The notes: generated by a model not told the origin, from the sequence alone. DNA of 27,965 bases from Candidatus Acidiferrum sp. (GCA_035518775.1 DATIXH010000347.1:1-27965); one strand, 5' to 3'; counted from the first letter of the stretch, positions 1,518 through 21,560 are shown. Program-made: numbers and translations.

Positions 1518-3272
1518 TCATTCCGGCACCCCCACCAGACGCAACCCTGCTGCGTGGCGGTCCATGACGTCGCTTTTGAACACCATGGCCTCACGCACCG
1601 CTCGGATTGTCAGGTTCGGATACGCGCACAACAATTCCCTCGTTCGCTCCAGGGCTTCGTCCATTCTGCCAGCTTCGACCAGCGCCGGTATGAGCGTGCG
1701 ATGAAGCCACACGGCGTGGGGACGCTCCGCCAAGCCACGAAGGAACCACTCCACCGCCAGTGCCGACGCCCCGGCGATGAAATGCGCACATCCGATGCCA
1801 AAGTAACAGGTGAAGACCATCGGATCGAACGGGCTGAGACGAAGCGCCTGCTCAAACTGCGCGACCGCCGCTTCCGCCTTGCTGGAGTAGAGAGAGAGCC
1901 AGCCGCTTCTATTCCAAGCGAAGGCCGAGTTCGGATCGATCACAAGCGCCCTCTTGAGCAGCATGCCCGCAGTCGCAATGTTGCGAACGACAGTGTGGGC
2001 CGCTGCCAGAACCGCCAGGACAAACGGGTCTTCTCCACTCAGCTCCGCCGCGCGCTCCGCCAATCTCAGCGCCTCTCGCTTGTCCGCCTCTGGCGTTGAG
2101 CTCCAGTTGTAGACGGCGCGTTGCGCATGGCACCAGGCCAACAGCGACAGCGCCTGGGGATATTCCGGATCGAGCTCAAGCGCCTTCTCCAGGAGTTCGG
2201 TCGCACTTGCATTCCCCTCGCGGGCCAGCGCCCACACATGCGGCAGAGCCTGCATGACTAGATCATAGGTCTTGAGGTCGCTCGGTCGCTTGCGCCGCGC
2301 TCGTTCGATCTCCGCCATCTGGATGGATGGTTGAATGGCTCCGACTACGCGCGCGGTGATATTATCCTGCAGGTCGAATACCTCGGCAATGTTACCCTTG
2401 AAGCTCTCAGCCCAGATGTGACGGGCGTTCTCTGTCTCGATCAGCTGCGCGGCAATACGGAGGTGGTTGCCTGCGCGGCGTACACTGCCTTCCAGAACAT
2501 AGCGCACACCAAGCTCACGTCCGACCTGCTGAACATTGAATGACTTGCCCCTGTAGGCGAAAGCCGAGTTGCGCGCGATCACGAAAAATCCCCGAATACG
2601 CGCGAGCGCAGCGGTGATCTCTTCAACGATGCCGTCGGCAAAATACGACTGCTCCGGGTCCGACGACATGTTATCGAAGGGCAGGATGGCGATGGAGGGC
2701 TTGTCTGGCAAAGATAAGGCTGGGCGCGGCGAAGCTGGAGGATGGTCAAGGATCGCCCGGTACACCCGGACCGGCCGGTCGATGTTCTTGAGCGTGTGCT
2801 GGCCGGTGTCTTCGAAGTGCAAATCGAGACGATTGCCGATGTGATCGTGAGCCATCGCGGACACGGCGATGCCTCCAGGCGGCGCAATTCCTTCGAGGCG
2901 AGCCGCCACATTAACCCCATCGCCAAAGATATCCTCTGCCTCGACGATGATGTCACCGACATTGACCCCGATCCGCAGCCAGATTGCCTGGTCGTCGGGC
3001 AGGCCGACATTGCGGCCTTGCATGGCTTGCTGGATATCGACCGCGCACGCCACTGCATTCACGACGCTTGGAAATTCCACGAGCAGACCGTCACCGGTGA
3101 GCTTTACGATCCGGCCATTATGCTCGGCAATCTTCGGATCGATGAGTTCGGCCCTGTGGGCCTTCAGTGCCTCAAGCGTTCCAGCCTCGTCCTGCTCAAT
3201 CAGCCGGCTGTAGCCAACCACGTCGGCGGCGAGAATCGCAGCAAGGCGGCGTTGGGCGCGTTCGTCTGCCAC
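1518..3272 (-). CDS. Class III adenylate/guanylate cyclase (CHD domain) with a TolB-N-like middle region and C-terminal TPR repeats
   Basis: 584-aa ORF. N-terminal cyclase homology domain (LAAILAADVVGYSRL, KLTGDG, GVNVAARLE); TPR-like helical repeats in the C-terminal half. The architecture is common in Rhizobiales. The many plus-strand ORFs across it are mirror ORFs. Confidence 0.85.
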   Translation of the reverse strand: MADERAQRRLAAILAADVVGYSRLIEQDEAGTLEALKAHRAELIDPKIAEHNGRIVKLTGDGLLVEFPSVVNAVACAVDIQQAMQGRNVGLPDDQAIWLRIGVNVGDIIVEAEDIFGDGVNVAARLEGIAPPGGIAVSAMAHDHIGNRLDLHFEDTGQHTLKNIDRPVRVYRAILDHPPASPRPALSLPDKPSIAILPFDNMSSDPEQSYFADGIVEEITAALARIRGFFVIARNSAFAYRGKSFNVQQVGRELGVRYVLEGSVRRAGNHLRIAAQLIETENARHIWAESFKGNIAEVFDLQDNITARVVGAIQPSIQMAEIERARRKRPSDLKTYDLVMQALPHVWALAREGNASATELLEKALELDPEYPQALSLLAWCHAQRAVYNWSSTPEADKREALRLAERAAELSGEDPFVLAVLAAAHTVVRNIATAGMLLKRALVIDPNSAFAWNRSGWLSLYSSKAEAAVAQFEQALRLSPFDPMVFTCYFGIGCAHFIAGASALAVEWFLRGLAERPHAVWLHRTLIPALVEAGRMDEALERTRELLCAYPNLTIRAVREAMVFKSDVMDRHAAGLRLVGVPE

Positions 3273-4191: not shown

Positions 4192-4481
4192 TGCGCCCTC
4201 CGCGTCAGCGCCCGCAAGGTTCAGTCGGCGCGGCGGCCCGGAGCGGGTACCGGGTGTTCGGGGATCAGCCTAGCCGCGCCAGCACCGATTATGAGCCGAT
4301 TCGCGCGGAACGTGATCCAGCAGAAGGTTATGGGTGTCCGCCTATGGGCCGGATCCGGACTCTACCCTGAGAAGGCGGCTAGGTCCGAGTCTCTAACCGG
4401 GCGGTAGCAATCGGCGTACCGACGAGAAGATCGAGCTGATCGCCAACCTCAGCCCGGACGAGGTTTGCGAGAGGTATCGCA

Positions 4482-12530: not shown

Positions 12531-12626
12531 CTCTTCCAGTTGAAGACGTAGGGCGTCAGCACTCTGCTCAACATCGACGACAATCCAAAGCGACGGAGCA
12601 TGGCGTCAAAGAGCGAAGGAGATCCA

Positions 12627-13394
12627 ATGGCGAATGAAACTGACACCCCCGTCGCGCTCATCACCGGGGCGTCGCGCGGCATTGGCCGCGCGACCGCGGA
12701 GACTCTCCTAAGAGAGGGGTATGATGTTCATGCCACATTCATCAGTCGCCGGGACTCGGCTGAAAGCCTGTTCAACGTCGCCAATGCGCTTGGCCGCAAA
12801 CTGACACTACATCAATACGACGCGGCTTCCCGCGAAAGCCAGGATCTTCTAATCCAGCACCTGTCGAAGACAAAGCTCCGAGCCATCGTGCACAACGCCG
12901 GCGTGGTACGGTTTGAGCGCTTCACCGATTATGACCAGAATATTTGGGATCAGACGTTCGAGATAAATCTCAACTCGGCTCTGCGGTTGACCCTCGGACT
13001 TCAGAACCGGCTGTCATCCGGCGCTTCTATTGTGCTGGTAGCCTCCACCGACGCGTTCGTCGGATCCTACGCAAGCATGGCCTACGCCGCCTCTAAGACA
13101 GCGATGACAAATCTGACCCGCAGTCTCGCTTGCAACTTCGGCCCGCGAAACATTCGTGCAAACGCTGTTGCCCCGGGCTGGATAAGTACGGACATGACAA
13201 CGGCAGCGTCCTCCGGTTCATCGTCTGTTACTCCGCTTGGGCGCGACGGCAGACCTGACGAGGTCGCCAACGCGATCGCGTTCCTGCTGTCGGACCGCGC
13301 AAGTTTCATCACGGGTACTACGTTGGTAGTTGATGGCGGCTATACCTCGTCGGACCCAATCATGCTGAATGAAGCACGCGAAATTGTTGGATAG
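12627..13394 (+). CDS. Short-chain dehydrogenase/reductase (SDR), low-GC gene
   Basis: ORF 12600..13394. Start moved to ATG 12627 (AAGGAG, then 5 nt, then ATG). Cofactor motif TGASRGIGRATA, NAG motif NAGV, catalytic YxxxK (YAASK). GC is visibly lower (~55%) than in flanking genes. Confidence 0.8.
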   Translation: MANETDTPVALITGASRGIGRATAETLLREGYDVHATFISRRDSAESLFNVANALGRKLTLHQYDAASRESQDLLIQHLSKTKLRAIVHNAGVVRFERFTDYDQNIWDQTFEINLNSALRLTLGLQNRLSSGASIVLVASTDAFVGSYASMAYAASKTAMTNLTRSLACNFGPRNIRANAVAPGWISTDMTTAASSGSSSVTPLGRDGRPDEVANAIAFLLSDRASFITGTTLVVDGGYTSSDPIMLNEAREIVG

Positions 13395-14194
13395 CGCTCG
13401 TTGCGAAAGGAATGTCCCTACTGAAAACTAGATTCGGGCGTAGCGGTGATGCAATCCGCCGACCTTGGGTTCGGCAATGATGCGACCAAATCGCTCAATT
13501 GGCCGGCCGATCGGCGCATCCTTGACTAGCGACAGGTGCGTGCGAGACTCGTTGTAGTAGCTGGCATACATCGCCACAATCCGGCGAAGGTGCGTCTCGC
13601 CGAGCACAATCACTTGGTCAGTGCATTCGAGCCGTACCGAGCCGATCAAACGCTCTGCGTAGGCGTTTTGCCAGGGCGACCGCGGCGCGGTTGGTCGATC
13701 CCGGACCCCGAGCGCACGCAGACGTCGCCTCACGACGTGGCCATAGACGGCGTCTCGATCGCGCACCAGATATCTGGGCGCTGTGTCCCACGGGAAGGCC
13801 TCGGTCATCTGCCGAGCAACCCAGTCAGCCGTCGGATGCGCCGTTATGGCGTGGTGAACGAGCTCCCTTCGGCCCCTACAGAGCTTTCGCTGACGGCAGC
13901 CATCGCGGCGGACCAGTTTGCGCGTGAGGCCTGTCCGCTAAAGAGCTCGCAGGCGCGCTGCTCTCCATGATGGCCAGGAGCCCATCGAGCTCCAAATTAG
14001 AGGCCGGATACATTGATGCAAGACCGCTCACCGCCAACTCGACGAACCCTCTTGCAACGCACCGCCGGACCATACATTGGTTCACACAGAGACTATCTGG
14101 CCACGTCCGCAGAAAGGCAGGTAATCCCCAGCTAGCGGACGTCTCGTCTTCGTTCGCGTGGAGTTTGAAGCCGGATGTGCAAACCCGTTGTACG
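13395..14194. mobile_element. Insertion-sequence remnant (transposase fragment plus flanking non-coding DNA)
   Basis: Contains the truncated transposase frame above plus ~250 bp without coherent coding signal. Lies between a low-GC cargo gene and the integrase gene. Confidence 0.45.
13428..13937 (-). pseudogene. DDE transposase/integrase-core (rve-like) C-terminal remnant, N-terminally truncated
   Basis: Open frame of 170 codons with no proper start (first ATG at 13808). It carries the conserved IS-transposase C-terminal region RSPWQNAYAERLIGSVRLEC...YYNESRTHLSL. The N-terminal catalytic domain is missing. Confidence 0.6.
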
Positions 14195-15421
14195 CTATCT
14201 CTGTTTGCCCCGGAGCTTTACGACCTTTGCTGCCGGTTTGCCGGCCATCGCGGCGGCGATCCGCCGGCCAATGGCTTCATTGGCGACCTTCACCGGGTCA
14301 TGATCCAAGTGCGCATATCTCGCAGTCGTCTGCGGCTGCGAATGGCCCAGAAGCTTGCCAATCATCGGTAACCCCATGCCAGACCCAGCGCCGACGCTGG
14401 CAAAACTATGACGTAGATCGTGCAGGCGAACATCGTCGAGCCCGGCCGTCTTGCGGATGCGTCGCCACGGTTTTTCCAAATTGACCAGATGCGCCCCCGT
14501 CTTGCCGCCGACGATCACATATGGATTGCCTGTCACGCGCGGAAGGGCGTCTAGAACGGCACGGGCCGGAGCGGACAGGTGGATCGTCTTGGCGCCGCTC
14601 TTGCTGTCCGGCAGGCGGGCGATGCCCTTGTCCAGGTCGATCCATTGCCACCGGAGCGTGAGGACTTCCGTCATGCGGGCACCGGTGAAGATCAGCAGCC
14701 GCACCGCCGCTACCTGATAGAGTTTTGCAGGATCGGCTTCGGCCGCCACCAGCGCGTCACCGAGGCGGGTCAATTCATTGGGCCTCAGGAAGCGTTCCCG
14801 TGGGCGCTCAGCGTACTTTTCTAGTCCCTGGCATGGATTATCCCCAGCCAGCGGGAAACCGTTGCGGTGGCCCCAGCCGAGTATCTTGGACAGCAGGGTC
14901 ACGGTCCTGTTGGCGGTCACCCGAGTGGGTCGCAGCTTGTAATGCAGGGTGCCGACATGCACAGCCGTCAGGTCGGGGACGCGGACGGCGCCCAGCTCCG
15001 GCAGGATCAGCCGATCGATGAGGGCGCGATAGGTCTGCTCGGTGCGCGGCTTCTTTTTGGCGACGTGAATTTCGAGGAACTGTTCCGCCAGCCGGCGGAC
15101 GGTTTGTGTCGGGTCGAGCTTCTTTTCATCAGCGGGATTGGCGCCCTCGACGACGCGCCCCAGGATACGCAGCGCCTCTTGCCGGGCCGTGTCCACCGTC
15201 CAGGGCGAGCCGTACTTGCCGATGGTGTAGCGCCGTTTGGGCGCCGCTCGGCCGCTGCCCTGCCGATATTGCACGAAGAATGTCTTGCTGCCGCCGGGCG
15301 ACACTTTCAGGCCAAAACCGATCACCTTCCGGTCGAACATGAGCTTAGTCGCCAACCGGCCCTTGCGCATGGCCGGTTTCGCCGCGTCGATCCTGCCCTT
15401 GGTCAGTCCTTGCGCTGCCAT
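14195..15421 (-). CDS. int: Tyrosine-type site-specific recombinase (phage/ICE-family integrase) with N-terminal Arm-DNA-binding (DUF4102-like) domain
   Basis: ORF 14195..15670. Start moved to ATG 15421 (AAGGGGG RBS), giving MAAQGLTKGRIDAAKPA... A P4-type Arm-binding N-terminus, and C-terminal catalytic boxes HDLRHSFAS and TTARYAHL with the nucleophilic Tyr. Confidence 0.85.
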   Translation of the reverse strand: MAAQGLTKGRIDAAKPAMRKGRLATKLMFDRKVIGFGLKVSPGGSKTFFVQYRQGSGRAAPKRRYTIGKYGSPWTVDTARQEALRILGRVVEGANPADEKKLDPTQTVRRLAEQFLEIHVAKKKPRTEQTYRALIDRLILPELGAVRVPDLTAVHVGTLHYKLRPTRVTANRTVTLLSKILGWGHRNGFPLAGDNPCQGLEKYAERPRERFLRPNELTRLGDALVAAEADPAKLYQVAAVRLLIFTGARMTEVLTLRWQWIDLDKGIARLPDSKSGAKTIHLSAPARAVLDALPRVTGNPYVIVGGKTGAHLVNLEKPWRRIRKTAGLDDVRLHDLRHSFASVGAGSGMGLPMIGKLLGHSQPQTTARYAHLDHDPVKVANEAIGRRIAAAMAGKPAAKVVKLRGKQR

Positions 15422-15561
15422 TATCGCCCCCTTACGCCAGCACCCACCGAGTACCCACGGCACTAGGTAGTCATGGCGGGATGTGACGGCAAGAGGATGC
15501 TGGAAATATCTGCTTTTCTGCGCTCCTGACGATTTCTGGCGGCTTGAGCGAAGCTTGAACT

Positions 15562-15611
15562 GCAGTTTCCTAAACCGTAGGTCGGGTGTTCGAGTCACCC
15601 CGGGGACGCCA
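15562..15611 (+). other. tRNA-Arg(CCU)-like 3' fragment ending in CCA (anticodon arm, variable loop AGGTC, T-arm GGGTG-TTCGAGT-CACCC, acceptor 3' strand CGGGGAC-G-CCA); candidate attR of an integrated element
   Basis: Perfect T-arm and a 3' acceptor strand plus CCA are present. The anticodon loop is TTCCTAA. No complementary 5' acceptor strand (GTCCCCG) and no D-arm occur upstream, so this is a fragment, not a gene. It lies 140 bp from the integrase start. Confidence 0.45.
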
Positions 15612-15630
15612 CTCCAGCACAAGACTGGGC

Positions 15631-15685
15631 GCCAAATTGGTCCGGCATCACTGAGCGGTTCGGCCGGCAATTTGGCCTTTTCCCC
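15631..15685 (+). terminator. Long stem-loop (GCCAAATTGGTCCGGC ... GCCGGCAATTTGGC) followed by CTTTTCCCC: likely the native terminator of the tRNA gene whose 3' end is the att fragment
   Basis: A ~14-bp stem with a 2-nt bulge, a 16-nt loop and a downstream T-run on the plus strand, 20 nt after the CCA. Confidence 0.45.
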
Positions 15686-15764
15686 GCTGATGCGGTGTCG
15701 GTACCATCGACACTAAACTCGTCGACGATCGACCGAAGGGTCATCGCAGAGCATTCTAAGTTGC

Positions 15765-15795
15765 AGGGCCCCTCTCGCCATGCGGGAGGGGCCCT
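15765..15795 (-). terminator. 13-bp near-perfect hairpin (AGGGCCCCTCTCG-CCATG-CGGGAGGGGCCCT), 13 nt downstream of the Zn-ribbon gene stop
   Basis: Thirteen contiguous pairs with one G-U and a 5-nt loop. No clear U-tract, which is common for high-GC alphaproteobacterial terminators. Confidence 0.4.
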
Positions 15796-17135: not shown

Positions 17136-18138
17136 CGGACCCTCCAGATGCGCCAACGCCAGTTCGCGGCGTCGAGGCAGGTGGAACAGTCCGACATCGC
17201 AGCCGACGGAGCGATCGACTGCCAGAGGGGCCCGGACCCACGAGCCAAGGCGGCTCGTAGGAGGCTAGGTTGGAAACGACCCGCGGGGTTTCAAGGGGGA
17301 TGGACCGTTAGGCGCCGAATATAGGCAGCGACCGATCAGGTATCAGCGACCATATGACCTACCCGACGTCAGTAGACGGCTGCGCGCGTCGAGCTTCCAC
17401 CCGGAGGACGCAAGCCATAGCGGACGAACGGGCCCGCGGGCCATCATGTCGCGGATCGGGCGGGGCACATCGCCCTTCTGTTTCGCGACCATTGCGATCC
17501 ATGCTGCGACATTCTCTTTGTTAACCGGCAAATCGAAAATTGCCCCGGTGCGGATCGACTGATCACGCGGACAGGCATTCGTCCTCACCGCAGCAGGTCC
17601 ACCTCTCCTGAAGGGAGGCGACTCCACGACGAGTGACCCCACATTCTCAAAGCCGGTTTTTAAGGCTCGATAATCTGATCTCTGATCGCAAAGCGCGCCA
17701 GATCGGGCAGAGAGCCAAGCTCGAGTTTTCGCATGATGGCTTCAGGCAAGGGATGCCGCAGAGAGCCTGGACGATGTCCAGCCTGGTCGACCATCCGGAC
17801 CGGCAGCAAGCTCCCGATATTTGTGCGATATCTAGGATGAGGCGCCCGTACGCGCACGGGGCTACAGAACGGACGATGCCGCATTTTCCGCGAGTAGCCC
17901 GAGCATCAGGTGGACCACGGTAGGGCCCTTGAAATCAAGGGCTGCTACGAGAAGTTCCTGAGCCGAATTGTTGCCGGGCACCAGCGAGGACCACGCCAAG
18001 GACGAACCCACCGCCCAACCGGGCACCAATCGTGCCCAGCCGCGACGAGAAAAACAATCATACTTCAGTGCCCAGTTTCATCCAGCATAGGACGCCACTC
18101 TCACAAGCAACCAGCTATACCGCGCCCGCGTTGCTTGC

Positions 18139-19551
18139 TCACGCGGGCATGGCGACGCCGAGGTCCGAGAGCCGGCTGCGCAGGTCGGCCATGATGCCGG
18201 TCAGCTCTTGTTCGGTGCGGGCTTCGGCGCGCGCCACCAGCACGGCCTGGGTGTTGGAGGCGCGGAGCAGCCACCAGCCGCCGTCCTTCGCGATCCGGAT
18301 GCCGTCGGTATCGTCGTACGTGGCGCCTTCGGCCGCCAGCCGATCGCGCAATTGGTCGACGATGGCGAACTTGCGCTCGTCCGGGCAGTCGATCCGGATC
18401 TCCGGCGTGCTGGCGAGCGTCGGCAGCTCGTCGCGCAGCTCGGCCAGCGAGCGGCCGGCCTGAACGATGGAGCGCAGGAGGCGGACGGCGGCGAAGAGTG
18501 CATCGTCGTAGCCGTAGTAGCCATCGGCGAAGAAGATGTGCCCGCTCATCTCGCCGGCGAGGGGCGCGCCGGTCTCGGCCATCTTGGTCTTGATGAGGGA
18601 GTGGCCGGTCTTCCACATGAGCGGGCGCCCGCCGAGGGCCGCGATGGTGTCGAACAGCGCCTGGCTCGCCTTCACGTCGGCGATGATGGTGGCGCCTGGG
18701 CGCGCCTGCAGCACGTCACGCGCCAGGATCGCCAGCAGCTGATCGCCCCAGATGATCCGCCCGCGTGCGTCGACGGCGCCGATGCGGTCGCCGTCGCCGT
18801 CGAAGGCGATGCCGAGATCGAGGCGCTGCTCCGCGACCTGCCCCTGCAGCTGCACGAGGTTGCGCGGCTCCGTGGGGTCGGGATGGTGGGCGGGGAAGCG
18901 GCCGTCGATCGTCTCGTTCATCAGGACGTGGCGGCCGGGGAGCTTGAGCGTGAGGCGCCGCACGATCTCGCCGGCGGCGCCGTTGCCGGGATCCCAGGCG
19001 ACGGCGAGCGAGGAGACGTCGGCGCCCGCGAGCCCTTGCAGCAGGCGGCCGACATAGGCGTTCTGCAGGTCCACCGTCTCGACGGCGCCGCGCCGCTGCG
19101 GCGTCCCGGCCTCGGCGGCGACGCGGCCGAGCTCGCGGATCATCTCGCCGAAGAAGGGCCGGCGGCCGATCATCATCTTGAAGCCGTTGTGGCTCGGCGG
19201 GTTGTGCGAGCCCGTCACCATGACGGCGGCGTCGACATCCAGGACATTGGCGGCGAAGTACAGCATCGGCGTCGGCCCCAGGCCGATGCGGACGCCGTCG
19301 CCGCCGGCGCGCCGGATGCCATCGACGACGGCCTCCTCGAGCTCCGGCGAGCTCAGGCGGCCGTCGCGGCCGACGCAGATGCGCGGCGCCCTGCGACAGT
19401 TGCGCGCGGCCATGAGGGTGAAGGCGCGGCCGAGCGCCGCTGCATCCGCGGCGGCCAGGGTCTCGCCGACGATGCCGCGGACATCGTATTCACGCAGGAT
19501 CGATGGATGGAAGCGATGGCCGGTGGAGGTCACGTCGGGTTCCCCTCGCAA
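18139..19551 (-). CDS. Phosphomannomutase/phosphoglucomutase (alpha-D-phosphohexomutase family)
   Basis: 470-aa ORF. Active-site phosphoserine loop TGSHNPPSHNGFK, metal-binding DGDGDR and a sugar-binding loop. The N-terminus (FHPSILREYDVRG) is typical of ManB/AlgC/Pgm. Confidence 0.85.
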   Translation of the reverse strand: MRGEPDVTSTGHRFHPSILREYDVRGIVGETLAAADAAALGRAFTLMAARNCRRAPRICVGRDGRLSSPELEEAVVDGIRRAGGDGVRIGLGPTPMLYFAANVLDVDAAVMVTGSHNPPSHNGFKMMIGRRPFFGEMIRELGRVAAEAGTPQRRGAVETVDLQNAYVGRLLQGLAGADVSSLAVAWDPGNGAAGEIVRRLTLKLPGRHVLMNETIDGRFPAHHPDPTEPRNLVQLQGQVAEQRLDLGIAFDGDGDRIGAVDARGRIIWGDQLLAILARDVLQARPGATIIADVKASQALFDTIAALGGRPLMWKTGHSLIKTKMAETGAPLAGEMSGHIFFADGYYGYDDALFAAVRLLRSIVQAGRSLAELRDELPTLASTPEIRIDCPDERKFAIVDQLRDRLAAEGATYDDTDGIRIAKDGGWWLLRASNTQAVLVARAEARTEQELTGIMADLRSRLSDLGVAMPA

Positions 19552-21413: not shown

Positions 21414-21482
21414 GTGGTCGCTAGCTCAGAGGCAGAGCGCCGGGGAGACCCGGAGGCACCGGTTCGAGTCCGGTCGATCACG
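21414..21482 (+). tRNA. Aberrant tRNA-like element (probable tRNA pseudogene): good D-arm, T-arm and acceptor pairing (with one G-U) but a 3-nt 8-9 spacer and a 4-nt anticodon loop
   Basis: GTGGTCG-CTA-GCTC-AGAGGCA-GAGC-G-CCGGG-GAGA-CCCGG-AGGC-ACCGG-TTCGAGT-CCGGT-CGATCAC-G. The T-loop TTCGAGT is canonical. Acceptor stems pair 7 of 7 with one G-U. The anticodon stem closes a tetraloop, so no anticodon can be assigned. No CCA. Confidence 0.35.
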
Positions 21483-21486
21483 CAAG

Positions 21487-21560
21487 AAGAGGATAGCTCA
21501 GATGGTTAGAGCAGATGCCTGATAAGCATCCAGTCGCGGGTTCGACTCCCGCTCCGACGC
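21487..21560 (+). tRNA. Aberrant tRNA-like element with anticodon GAU (Ile-like): canonical D-arm, anticodon arm, variable loop and T-arm, but the acceptor stem pairs only 3 of 7
   Basis: AAGAGGA-TA-GCTC-AGATGGTTA-GAGC-A-GATGC-CTGATAA-GCATC-CAGTC-GCGGG-TTCGACT-CCCGC-TCCGACG-C, followed by TCC (no CCA). Internal arms are all perfect; the 5' strand AAGAGGA does not complement the 3' strand TCCGACG. It sits 4 nt after the previous tRNA-like element. Confidence 0.35.

Follow-up and report, generated by a model that had tools for sequence, protein, structure and literature searches.

An integrase gene and a displaced tRNA-Arg(CCU) 3' fragment as the probable attR-type end of a genomic island in a soil metagenome contig

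Introduction

A tyrosine integrase gene lies beside the 3' part of a tRNA-Arg(CCU) gene in the stretch of 27,965 nucleotides (nt) analysed here, which is referred to as the window and which represents the first 27,965 nt of the 33,037-nt ENA metagenome contig ERZ27256607:k141_2911987, with identical coordinates. This arrangement raises the question of whether the two features together form the edge of an integrated mobile element and, if so, on which side of the tRNA fragment the element lies and how far it extends. An earlier reading of the same DNA, the original prediction, had proposed integration into the 3' end of the tRNA gene with the element to the left. We conclude, with a probability of roughly 0.85, that positions 14195-15611 constitute an integration module and the attR-type right end of a genomic island in tRNA-Arg(CCU), the element extending to the left. 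The locus is in this respect ordinary, being one further example of a well-known class of mobile DNA from an uncultured soil bacterium.

The tRNA-Arg(CCU) fragment

The attachment (att) core is a displaced 3' fragment of tRNA-Arg(CCU) at 15565..15611 on the plus strand, and is identical at 47/47 nt to intact tRNA-Arg(CCU) genes of metagenomes, for instance those of L070, L073 and L107 (L numbers denote loci and contigs throughout). It begins with the final 2 nt of the anticodon stem and continues through the loop TTCCTAA with the anticodon CCT at 15569-15571, the variable loop, the T arm, the 3' acceptor strand, the discriminator G and CCA. Neither ARAGORN nor Rfam at its gathering threshold calls a tRNA near 15.6 kb, the fragment being devoid of a 5' half, and a permissive Rfam scan returns a partial tRNA match of 15.3 bits against a gathering score of 29. 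The identity and the missing tRNA call bear out the proposal of a 3' fragment that runs from the anticodon arm to CCA and has no 5' half; an intact tRNA overlapping 15536-15611, named at the time as counter-evidence, is found by neither program. A 37-mer of the core occurs once in the window and in 0 of 100 shuffles. Single-nucleotide polymorphisms in the population, G15584A (L002/L014) and T15566G (L016), disrupt the stems of the fragment, which is consistent with a non-functional leftover.

The block of identity opens 2 nt 5' of the anticodon loop, where a pseudo-stem on the element side, GCAGT/ACCGT, pairs at 4 of 5 positions. Judged by its sequence, the fragment is of the anticodon-loop ("A") att sublocation of tRNA-targeting tyrosine integrases, the sublocation of 2083 of the 3919 Islander islands (PMC4383910).

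The integrase and its arm region

The integrase gene is located at 14195..15421 on the minus strand and encodes a protein of 408 amino acids (aa) with P4-type architecture, as indicated by Pfam, PHROG and homologue alignment. An N-terminal Arm-DNA-bind_3 domain (PF13356, 1.5e-13) precedes the catalytic Phage_integrase domain (PF00589, 8.4e-22), and PHROG 1, an integrase family, is matched at 1.3e-58. The mechanically defined open reading frame (ORF) of 491 aa is too long; the start is ATG 15421 according to both the gene callers and the homologue alignment. Residues R249, K274, H334-x-x-R337, H360 and Y369 are invariant in an alignment of the window integrase with 11 homologues of 53-88% identity, among which its length is normal. 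Scores with the Xer and IntI models of NCBIfam are far under their cut-offs. The identical protein is present in 7 contigs from several samples, and further homologues are 83-88% identical. The integrase is, to judge from these alignments, full length with a complete set of catalytic residues, and the intact P4-type enzyme with its catalytic Tyr is confirmed. The orientation requires correction, for the gene had been described as ending 140 bp from the fragment: it is the start codon that faces the fragment, at a distance of 143 nt, and the gene and the fragment are divergent.

The interval between the integrase start and the core, 15422..15564, is conserved in the two loci with the closest integrases, L157 and L158, and is regarded as an element-derived arm. 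It carries the direct repeat GCACCCAC-CGA-GTACCCAC at 15440-15458, which is conserved in L157 and L158 and recognisable as GTATCCCC-TAG-GTATCCCC in L043, whose integrase is 55% identical. We propose that the repeat provides arm-type sites for the N-terminal domain of the integrase, forms part of the int promoter, or both. The arm further includes, at ~15532-15564, a degenerate pseudo-5' half of a tRNA; the L158 counterpart is sufficiently tRNA-like for ARAGORN to call an 80-nt tRNA-Arg.

Other loci with the same tRNA gene

Public metagenome contigs scanned with a 23-mer from the T arm and acceptor yielded at least 120 loci; the counts below are among the matches listed. These are 121 in number and comprise 99 complete tRNA-Arg(CCU) genes of a widespread soil type, 5 copies cut by contig ends, and 17 3' fragments. 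Every one of the 17 fragments opens at or just before the anticodon loop. Usable upstream sequence (at least ~300 nt) is available at 13 of them, and 7 of these 13 have an adjoining tyrosine integrase that is 27-55% identical and is situated directly to the left of the fragment, divergent and ~150-250 nt away, which is the geometry of the window. No tyrosine integrase is found beside any of the 99 intact genes, 53 of which have at least 1.5 kb of downstream sequence (Fisher test, 7/13 for fragments versus 0/53 for intact genes, p ~2e-6).

Paired loci display the states before and after integration. L043, with its integrase and fragment, and L105, with an intact tRNA gene, have identical right flanks and represent an attR/attB pair; L063/L037 and L078b/L119 are further pairs of this kind, and L078 presents a whole 8.3-kb island between tRNA and fragment. 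The closest integrases, those of L157 (83% identical, in a 762-kb contig) and L158 (85%), stand in the same geometry to a fragment. Nucleotide homology between the window and these two loci is limited to 14235/14245-15614, that is, it stops ~40-50 nt inside the 3' end of the integrase gene on one side and 3 nt past CCA on the other. The alignments identify this 1.38-kb block as a conserved int-attP module, and the end of homology at the 3' end of the tRNA places the boundary between element and host there. The association of integrases with fragments exclusively, the attR/attB pairs and the end of homology at CCA together substantiate the original prediction of an element that lies to the left and ends in an attR-type junction within the 3' part of tRNA-Arg(CCU).

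The same comparisons bear on two further explanations of the fragment. It could belong to a tRNA gene that is decaying in place and has lost its 5' half, an unrelated integrase being nearby by chance, and the faint resemblance of 15532-15564 to a tRNA 5' half is what such decay would leave. That segment, however, has its homologue in the arm that the elements of L157 and L158 carry, not in a host tRNA; the break point is the same as the anticodon-loop break of the 16 other, independent fragments; and the association of integrase and fragment is highly non-random. Decay in place is therefore the least credible of the explanations discussed here, with next to no weight. The fragment could instead be the core of a plasmid or another circular element that has not integrated, an attP with element DNA on both flanks. 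Fragments in L057 and L083, which accompany integrases of other clades, are followed by element-like motifs, so that attP or tandem configurations do exist at this tRNA. Nevertheless, the right flank of the window is wholly unlike that of the 83-85% relatives, although a P' arm should be conserved; the contig, of at least 34 kb, has housekeeping genes (TerC with its riboswitch, phosphoglucomutase, epimerase) and no plasmid or phage genes; and viral contigs contain no match to the core. We consider an attP very improbable.

Integration at tRNA-Arg(CCU) appears to be frequent. One and the same host left flank of the gene is joined to 3-5 different right flanks (L023/L033/L056/L069/L116/L126/L128/L139, and other groups), which marks tRNA-Arg(CCU) as a busy integration hotspot. 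Contigs of metagenome-assembled genomes (MAGs) that end at such tRNAs are likely to be strain-variable, and the int-attP module is compact (1.38 kb) with a predictable target. We also note that ~10% of the intact tRNA-Arg(CCU) copies are followed by a TCAATnnnTTAG-like motif.

The junction itself is well supported by assembly. The order SDR (short-chain dehydrogenase/reductase) gene, insertion sequence (IS) remnant, integrase, tRNA piece, Zn-ribbon and TerC recurs in independent assemblies of at least 5 samples, and the integrase-fragment-Zn-ribbon junction is spanned in those assemblies, including two from the Joint Genome Institute (JGI; L003 and L004). The contig is carried by the samples ERZ27256607, ERZ27256589 and ERZ27256499, SRR8881007, SRR8881009 and SRR8881745, and JGI 3300033004, 3300032829 and 3300032782. 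Because the order recurs in this manner, the attR junction is not an assembly chimera.

Mechanism and extent of the island

The integration event may be envisaged as follows. A circular element would have possessed a divergent integrase gene and an attP holding a copy of the 3' two thirds of tRNA-Arg(CCU). The P4-type integrase would recombine this attP with the chromosomal tRNA-Arg(CCU), the 7-nt crossover presumably coinciding with the anticodon loop and the two halves of the anticodon stem acting as inverted core-type binding sites, as is expected from the class of enzyme. Integration would rebuild a complete tRNA at the far (attL) end from the core copy of the element, and the displaced native 3' piece of 47 nt, with the sequence downstream of it, would be left beside the integrase promoter region. 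A plus-strand fragment that retains only the 3' part of the tRNA is bordered by the element at its 5' end, which puts the island on the left. The DNA to the left of 15565 beside the integrase would accordingly be element DNA, beginning with the integrase and the IS remnant and going on to cargo such as the SDR gene and probably more.

Several observations weigh against this account. The second boundary is missing: neither an intact tRNA-Arg(CCU) nor a second copy of the core is found in the window, in L150, which reaches 6.5 kb further left, or in L148 (1.7 kb further left). The search employed the 37-mer with 3 mismatches, blastn-short of the whole tRNA, Rfam at E <= 5 and the attL-side motif TTTCAATNNNTTAGC, and covered -6.5 kb to +32 kb in window coordinates. 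That the other island end is not identifiable in the window had been foreseen. No attB for the right flank of the window is present among the loci listed. Composition shows no break at the att site; the step in GC and in GC at third codon positions (GC3) lies 2.5 kb further right. No excisionase or other mobility gene is found in the 15 kb to the left, where ORFs of 13395-14194 and elsewhere give no match of AlpA or Xis type (HTH_17 or Xis). Relatives of the TerC and Zn-ribbon genes on the right flank (76-78%) have no adjoining tRNA-Arg and so give no evidence that the flank is the ancestral tRNA neighbourhood; those of TerC at this identity (L153-L156, L161) have another neighbourhood and are too distant to be informative about an empty site. 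The best TerC relative in the genome collection, 67% identical (L007), has no tRNA nearby, and exact look-up of the Zn-ribbon protein returned no match.

As no intact tRNA lies within 22 kb on the left, the island is either larger than 22 kb or has lost its interior together with attL. Two candidates for a distant counterpart were rejected. A possible second genomic copy, suggested by Logan contigs that all end at 15586, was discarded on account of the 30-mer 15586-15615 (...GCCACTCC), which is common to the tRNA-Arg loci of other community members. The other candidate was L073:1-6041 (JGI 3300033004, the sample of L003 and L015), which contains an intact tRNA-Arg(CCU), identical to the window fragment over 46 nt and ending in CCG; behind it lies an element that encodes a Toprim primase of 928 aa and an AlpA-like HTH_17 protein. 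L073 may represent the attL of an island at this tRNA in the same community; it has no linkage to the locus and no other sequence in common with the window, and was not accepted as the attL of the island in question.

Genes to the left of the integrase

Adjacent to the integrase are the two features that had been described as a transposase remnant and SDR cargo. The former, at 13428..13808 on the minus strand, is a C-terminal remnant of 126 aa from an IS481/IS3-type DDE transposase, in which rve_3 is the only domain matched. It aligns to positions 193-282 of 284 in the IS481 model and 291-365 of 369 in the IS3 model, with scores of 42-45 bits against cut-offs of 160-224, and a complete DDE domain and an N-terminal helix-turn-helix (HTH) are absent. 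The model positions agree with the description, the C-terminal third alone being left. The gap between the remnant and the integrase stop measures only 386 nt, too little to accommodate the N-terminal two thirds of the transposase. The best plasmid matches of the remnant are "integrase core domain" proteins of Bradyrhizobium (57-66% identity).

The gene at 12627..13394 on the plus strand (ORF from 12600) encodes an SDR-family oxidoreductase of 255 aa as called, and is a putative cargo gene. Its presence is verified by Pfam (adh_short_C2, 7.6e-56); NCBIfam gives generic SDR/FabG-like matches only, all under cut-offs. The GC (0.577) and GC3 (0.656) of the gene are the lowest of the left block together with those of hyp263. 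The claim that it lies about 10 points lower in GC is overstated, as the window has a GC of 0.647 and its left 15.6 kb one of 0.62, a difference of 4-7 points, and composition is a weak argument here.

These features raise the alternative that the integrase-attR module is all that survives of the island, IS-mediated deletion or rearrangement having taken the interior and possibly attL, in which case the genes left of the IS remnant (SDR, ABC transporter, GntR and others) would be ordinary chromosome rather than cargo. The truncated transposase at 386 nt from the integrase stop, the end of homology with related elements ~40-50 nt inside the 3' end of the integrase, and the want of mobility genes and attL within 22 kb would all fit such a relic, as would the existence of integrase-less, evidently decayed islands at the same tRNA (L078, L032, L104). 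However, metabolic genes, partly fragmented, directly follow the integrase in L157 and L158 too, without an IS; the left block shares the intermediate GC of the whole ~24-kb low-GC stretch; a mobile-element-associated int-alpA RNA motif is located at 4211-4280; and, as a weak point given the large size of the family, adenylate-cyclase/TPR homologues occur on the island side in L157 and L158. Loss of everything but the module is somewhat less likely than a left block that belongs to the island.

The last two points derive from the following observations. The int-alpA RNA, on the minus strand, scores 40.6 bits against a gathering score of 35.8 and lies directly upstream of a 263-aa ORF that matches nothing in Pfam, PHROG or NCBIfam and is not AlpA-like; at 11 kb from the integrase, the motif may be a trace of mobile-element origin. 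Adenylate-cyclase/TPR homologues of 34-42% identity are encoded at 1518-3272 (minus strand) in the window, at L157:15558-16750 and L158:6146-7612, and in L021/L160, and several loci have such proteins within 4-12 kb of an integrase associated with tRNA-Arg(CCU). The idea of a conserved island gene was set aside and is retained as a hint only, since at this identity and in so large a paralogous family the recurrence may be a coincidence.

The right flank and the sequence following CCA

The original prediction took the stem-loop and T-run behind the fragment for the strong, native terminator of the tRNA gene. An imperfect hairpin (9 + 5 bp, stem-loop 15631-15678) followed by TTTT is indeed present at 15631..15683 on the plus strand and could serve as a weak terminator. 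It is unexceptional in strength, with a minimum free energy of -29.3 kcal/mol for 15612-15690, z = -1.25 and 27 of 200 shuffles folding as well; a terminator scan makes no call for it; only 4 T follow it, where an intrinsic terminator has at least 5; and the end of the Zn-ribbon gene has a stronger hairpin of its own, at 15765-15795 (z = -4.6). The hairpin is thus confirmed, but its strength is not borne out and its native origin is doubtful, the latter in view of the sequence that immediately follows CCA.

This trailer, CTCCAGCACAAGACTGGGCGCC at 15612..15633 on the plus strand, resembles the sequence after intact tRNAs in L021, L117, L116/L126, L069 and L092. In L021, L117 and L160 the trailer-like sequence terminates an opposite-strand gene for a large serine recombinase of 547-548 aa (L021:8505-10151, minus; L117:2086-3729, minus; L160:4551-6197, plus), and this gene reads through the 3' part of the tRNA as ...VPSFVRE-WRPRGDSNTRPTV followed by a stop. 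The trailer is identical at 17 of 21 nt to the post-CCA sequence of L021, which codes for the ...VPSFVRE of the 548-aa recombinase overlapping the tRNA. Read in antisense, the trailer gives APSLVLE, then W from the antisense of CCA, with 5 of 7 aa like the recombinase motif. Homologues of the recombinase number 5315 at E <= 1e-40. Among the best 120 of these, 94 end in W-x4-(D/E)SN (the antisense of CCA, acceptor strand and T loop) and 99 have a PSFVxxW-like motif just before this tail; the ~40 tail variants in the same set imply many different tRNAs. Because the PSFVxxW motif is found across these variants, it belongs to the recombinase and not to the native trailer of one tRNA. The resemblance suggests that the trailer is probably left over from the 3' end of a gene for a large serine recombinase, a reading that undercuts the native terminator and suggests sequential occupation of the hotspot.

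The right flank is otherwise composed of the Zn-ribbon and TerC genes and ~0.9 kb of non-coding DNA at 17250-18139, in which no RNA family and no convincing ORF is found. A terC riboswitch-like RNA (17182-17243, minus strand, 60 bits, full length) is situated upstream of the TerC/Zn-ribbon operon. The composition of the window changes sharply at ~18.1 kb, from a GC of 0.61-0.62 and a GC3 of 0.65-0.86 on the left to 0.70 and 0.89-0.94 on the right; the low-GC block continues at least 6.5 kb beyond the window start, and the att site, at 15.6 kb, lies away from the step.

It is therefore conceivable that the interval from 15612 to ~18.1 kb (trailer, Zn-ribbon, TerC and the non-coding DNA) is foreign as well, an older large-serine-recombinase element having been placed tail-to-tail on the tRNA and the tyrosine-integrase island having been inserted later between the tRNA body and the remnant. 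Such tandem or sequential occupation is compatible with the attR reading. It would account for the 17/21 identity with the recombinase 3' ends of L021 and L117, for the conservation of PSFVxxW in a recombinase family on many different tRNAs, for shortened trailers after intact tRNAs without a recombinase gene in L116, L126, L069 and L092, for the position of the GC3 step at ~18.1 kb rather than at 15.6 kb, and for the 5 different right flanks at this tRNA in one host lineage. On the other hand, the similarity spans only 22 nt, with neither a further recombinase remnant nor a serine recombinase ORF overlapping the tRNA 3' end in the window; the region near 18 kb shows neither a second boundary nor a repeat; and TerC and Zn-ribbon with the riboswitch form a conserved housekeeping-type pair in distant taxa. 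We hold a foreign origin of the whole interval to be a tentative possibility, short of even odds. The history of the tRNA gene alone, which would first have held a serine-integrase element of a large uncharacterised soil proteobacterial clade and later have been split by the tyrosine-integrase island, comes slightly nearer to an even chance.

If true, the locus would record the competition of two recombinase families for a single tRNA hotspot. According to the literature, serine integrases were not known to target tRNA genes (tDNAs) (PMC4383910); a later survey with TIGER placed only 14 of 297 serine-integrase (S-Int) elements at t(m)RNA genes and called for experimental proof of these cases (Mageeney et al. 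2020, PMC7192596). If experiments confirmed it, the existence of a large serine-integrase clade whose genes run into tRNA 3' ends would bear on why tRNA genes are preferred targets.

Source of the contig and other features of the window

The exact proteins of the window (HUL08687-HUL08702) are deposited at NCBI in a MAG labelled "Candidatus Acidoferrum sp." (Acidobacteriota). Alphaproteobacteria (Hyphomicrobiaceae, Stellaceae, Bradyrhizobium) supply the nearest homologues of the integrase, of TerC and of the transposase remnant. Either the contig is mis-binned or horizontal transfer has been extensive, and in view of this affinity, which the flanking genes share, the taxon is treated as uncertain.

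A strain-level breakpoint is observed at ~170-190 of the window, upstream of a PALP gene, where L148 and L150 diverge; no att site is present there. The L148 variant runs on into a beta-lactamase-family gene, and L150, the variant of the window, into AMP-binding, PAS and Sel1 genes. The contig end of the window falls near this branch point.

Two tandem tRNA-like sequences, at 21414-21483 and 21491-21555 on the plus strand, are located 9 nt apart upstream of a Band_7 gene and score 39 and 52 bits, respectively, with the Rfam tRNA model. The first has a good acceptor stem and a 4-nt GAGA loop instead of an anticodon loop, for which ARAGORN reports a 2-base anticodon. The second has a good tRNA-Ile(GAU) body with an acceptor stem paired at 3 of 7 positions. 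Both are conserved in other assemblies (L001, L002).

Comparison with known systems

Integration sublocations within tRNA genes are reportedly the subject of an earlier account by Williams in 2002. The isoacceptor itself is familiar as a target, since prophages and islands of enterobacteria such as CPS-53/KpLE1 and Sf6 use argW, a tRNA-Arg(CCU) gene, as their attachment site. The host phylum, the tRNA sequence and the element content of the argW elements are unrelated to those of the window, which has no phage genes. Among large-serine-recombinase elements at t(m)RNA genes, the recombinases of L021, L117 and L160 overlap the same tRNA-Arg(CCU) and the trailer of the window resembles their gene end, whereas the window itself lacks a recombinase gene and has a possible relic of 22 nt only.

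P4-type integrases, of which P4 Int, CP4-57 IntA and ICEMlSymR7A IntS are examples, provide a closer parallel. The window integrase shares with them the Arm-DNA-bind_3 (DUF4102) plus Phage_integrase architecture, the tRNA target, and paired short direct repeats beside int. P4 itself uses the T-loop/3' end sublocation and has int beside the intact tRNA. The window also differs in that neither an AlpA/excisionase nor a primase gene follows int; in L073, at the same tRNA and from the same sample, HTH_17 AlpA and Toprim primase genes are both present.

The closest correspondence is with Islander-type islands. In these, by the principle of the family, integration leaves a complete tRNA at the opposite end, whereas the available sequence of the window has no second boundary. 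The group described here also departs from them in the position of int, which stands at the fragment end, divergent, and not beside the intact tRNA (7/13 fragments versus 0/99 intact genes). As in Islander-type islands, a tyrosine integrase at the island end is accompanied by a displaced 3' tDNA fragment that marks this end. The window conforms in particular to their "A" sublocation (Hudson et al. 2015, PMC4383910), in which the fragment begins at the anticodon loop and the element supplies a partial 5' stem.

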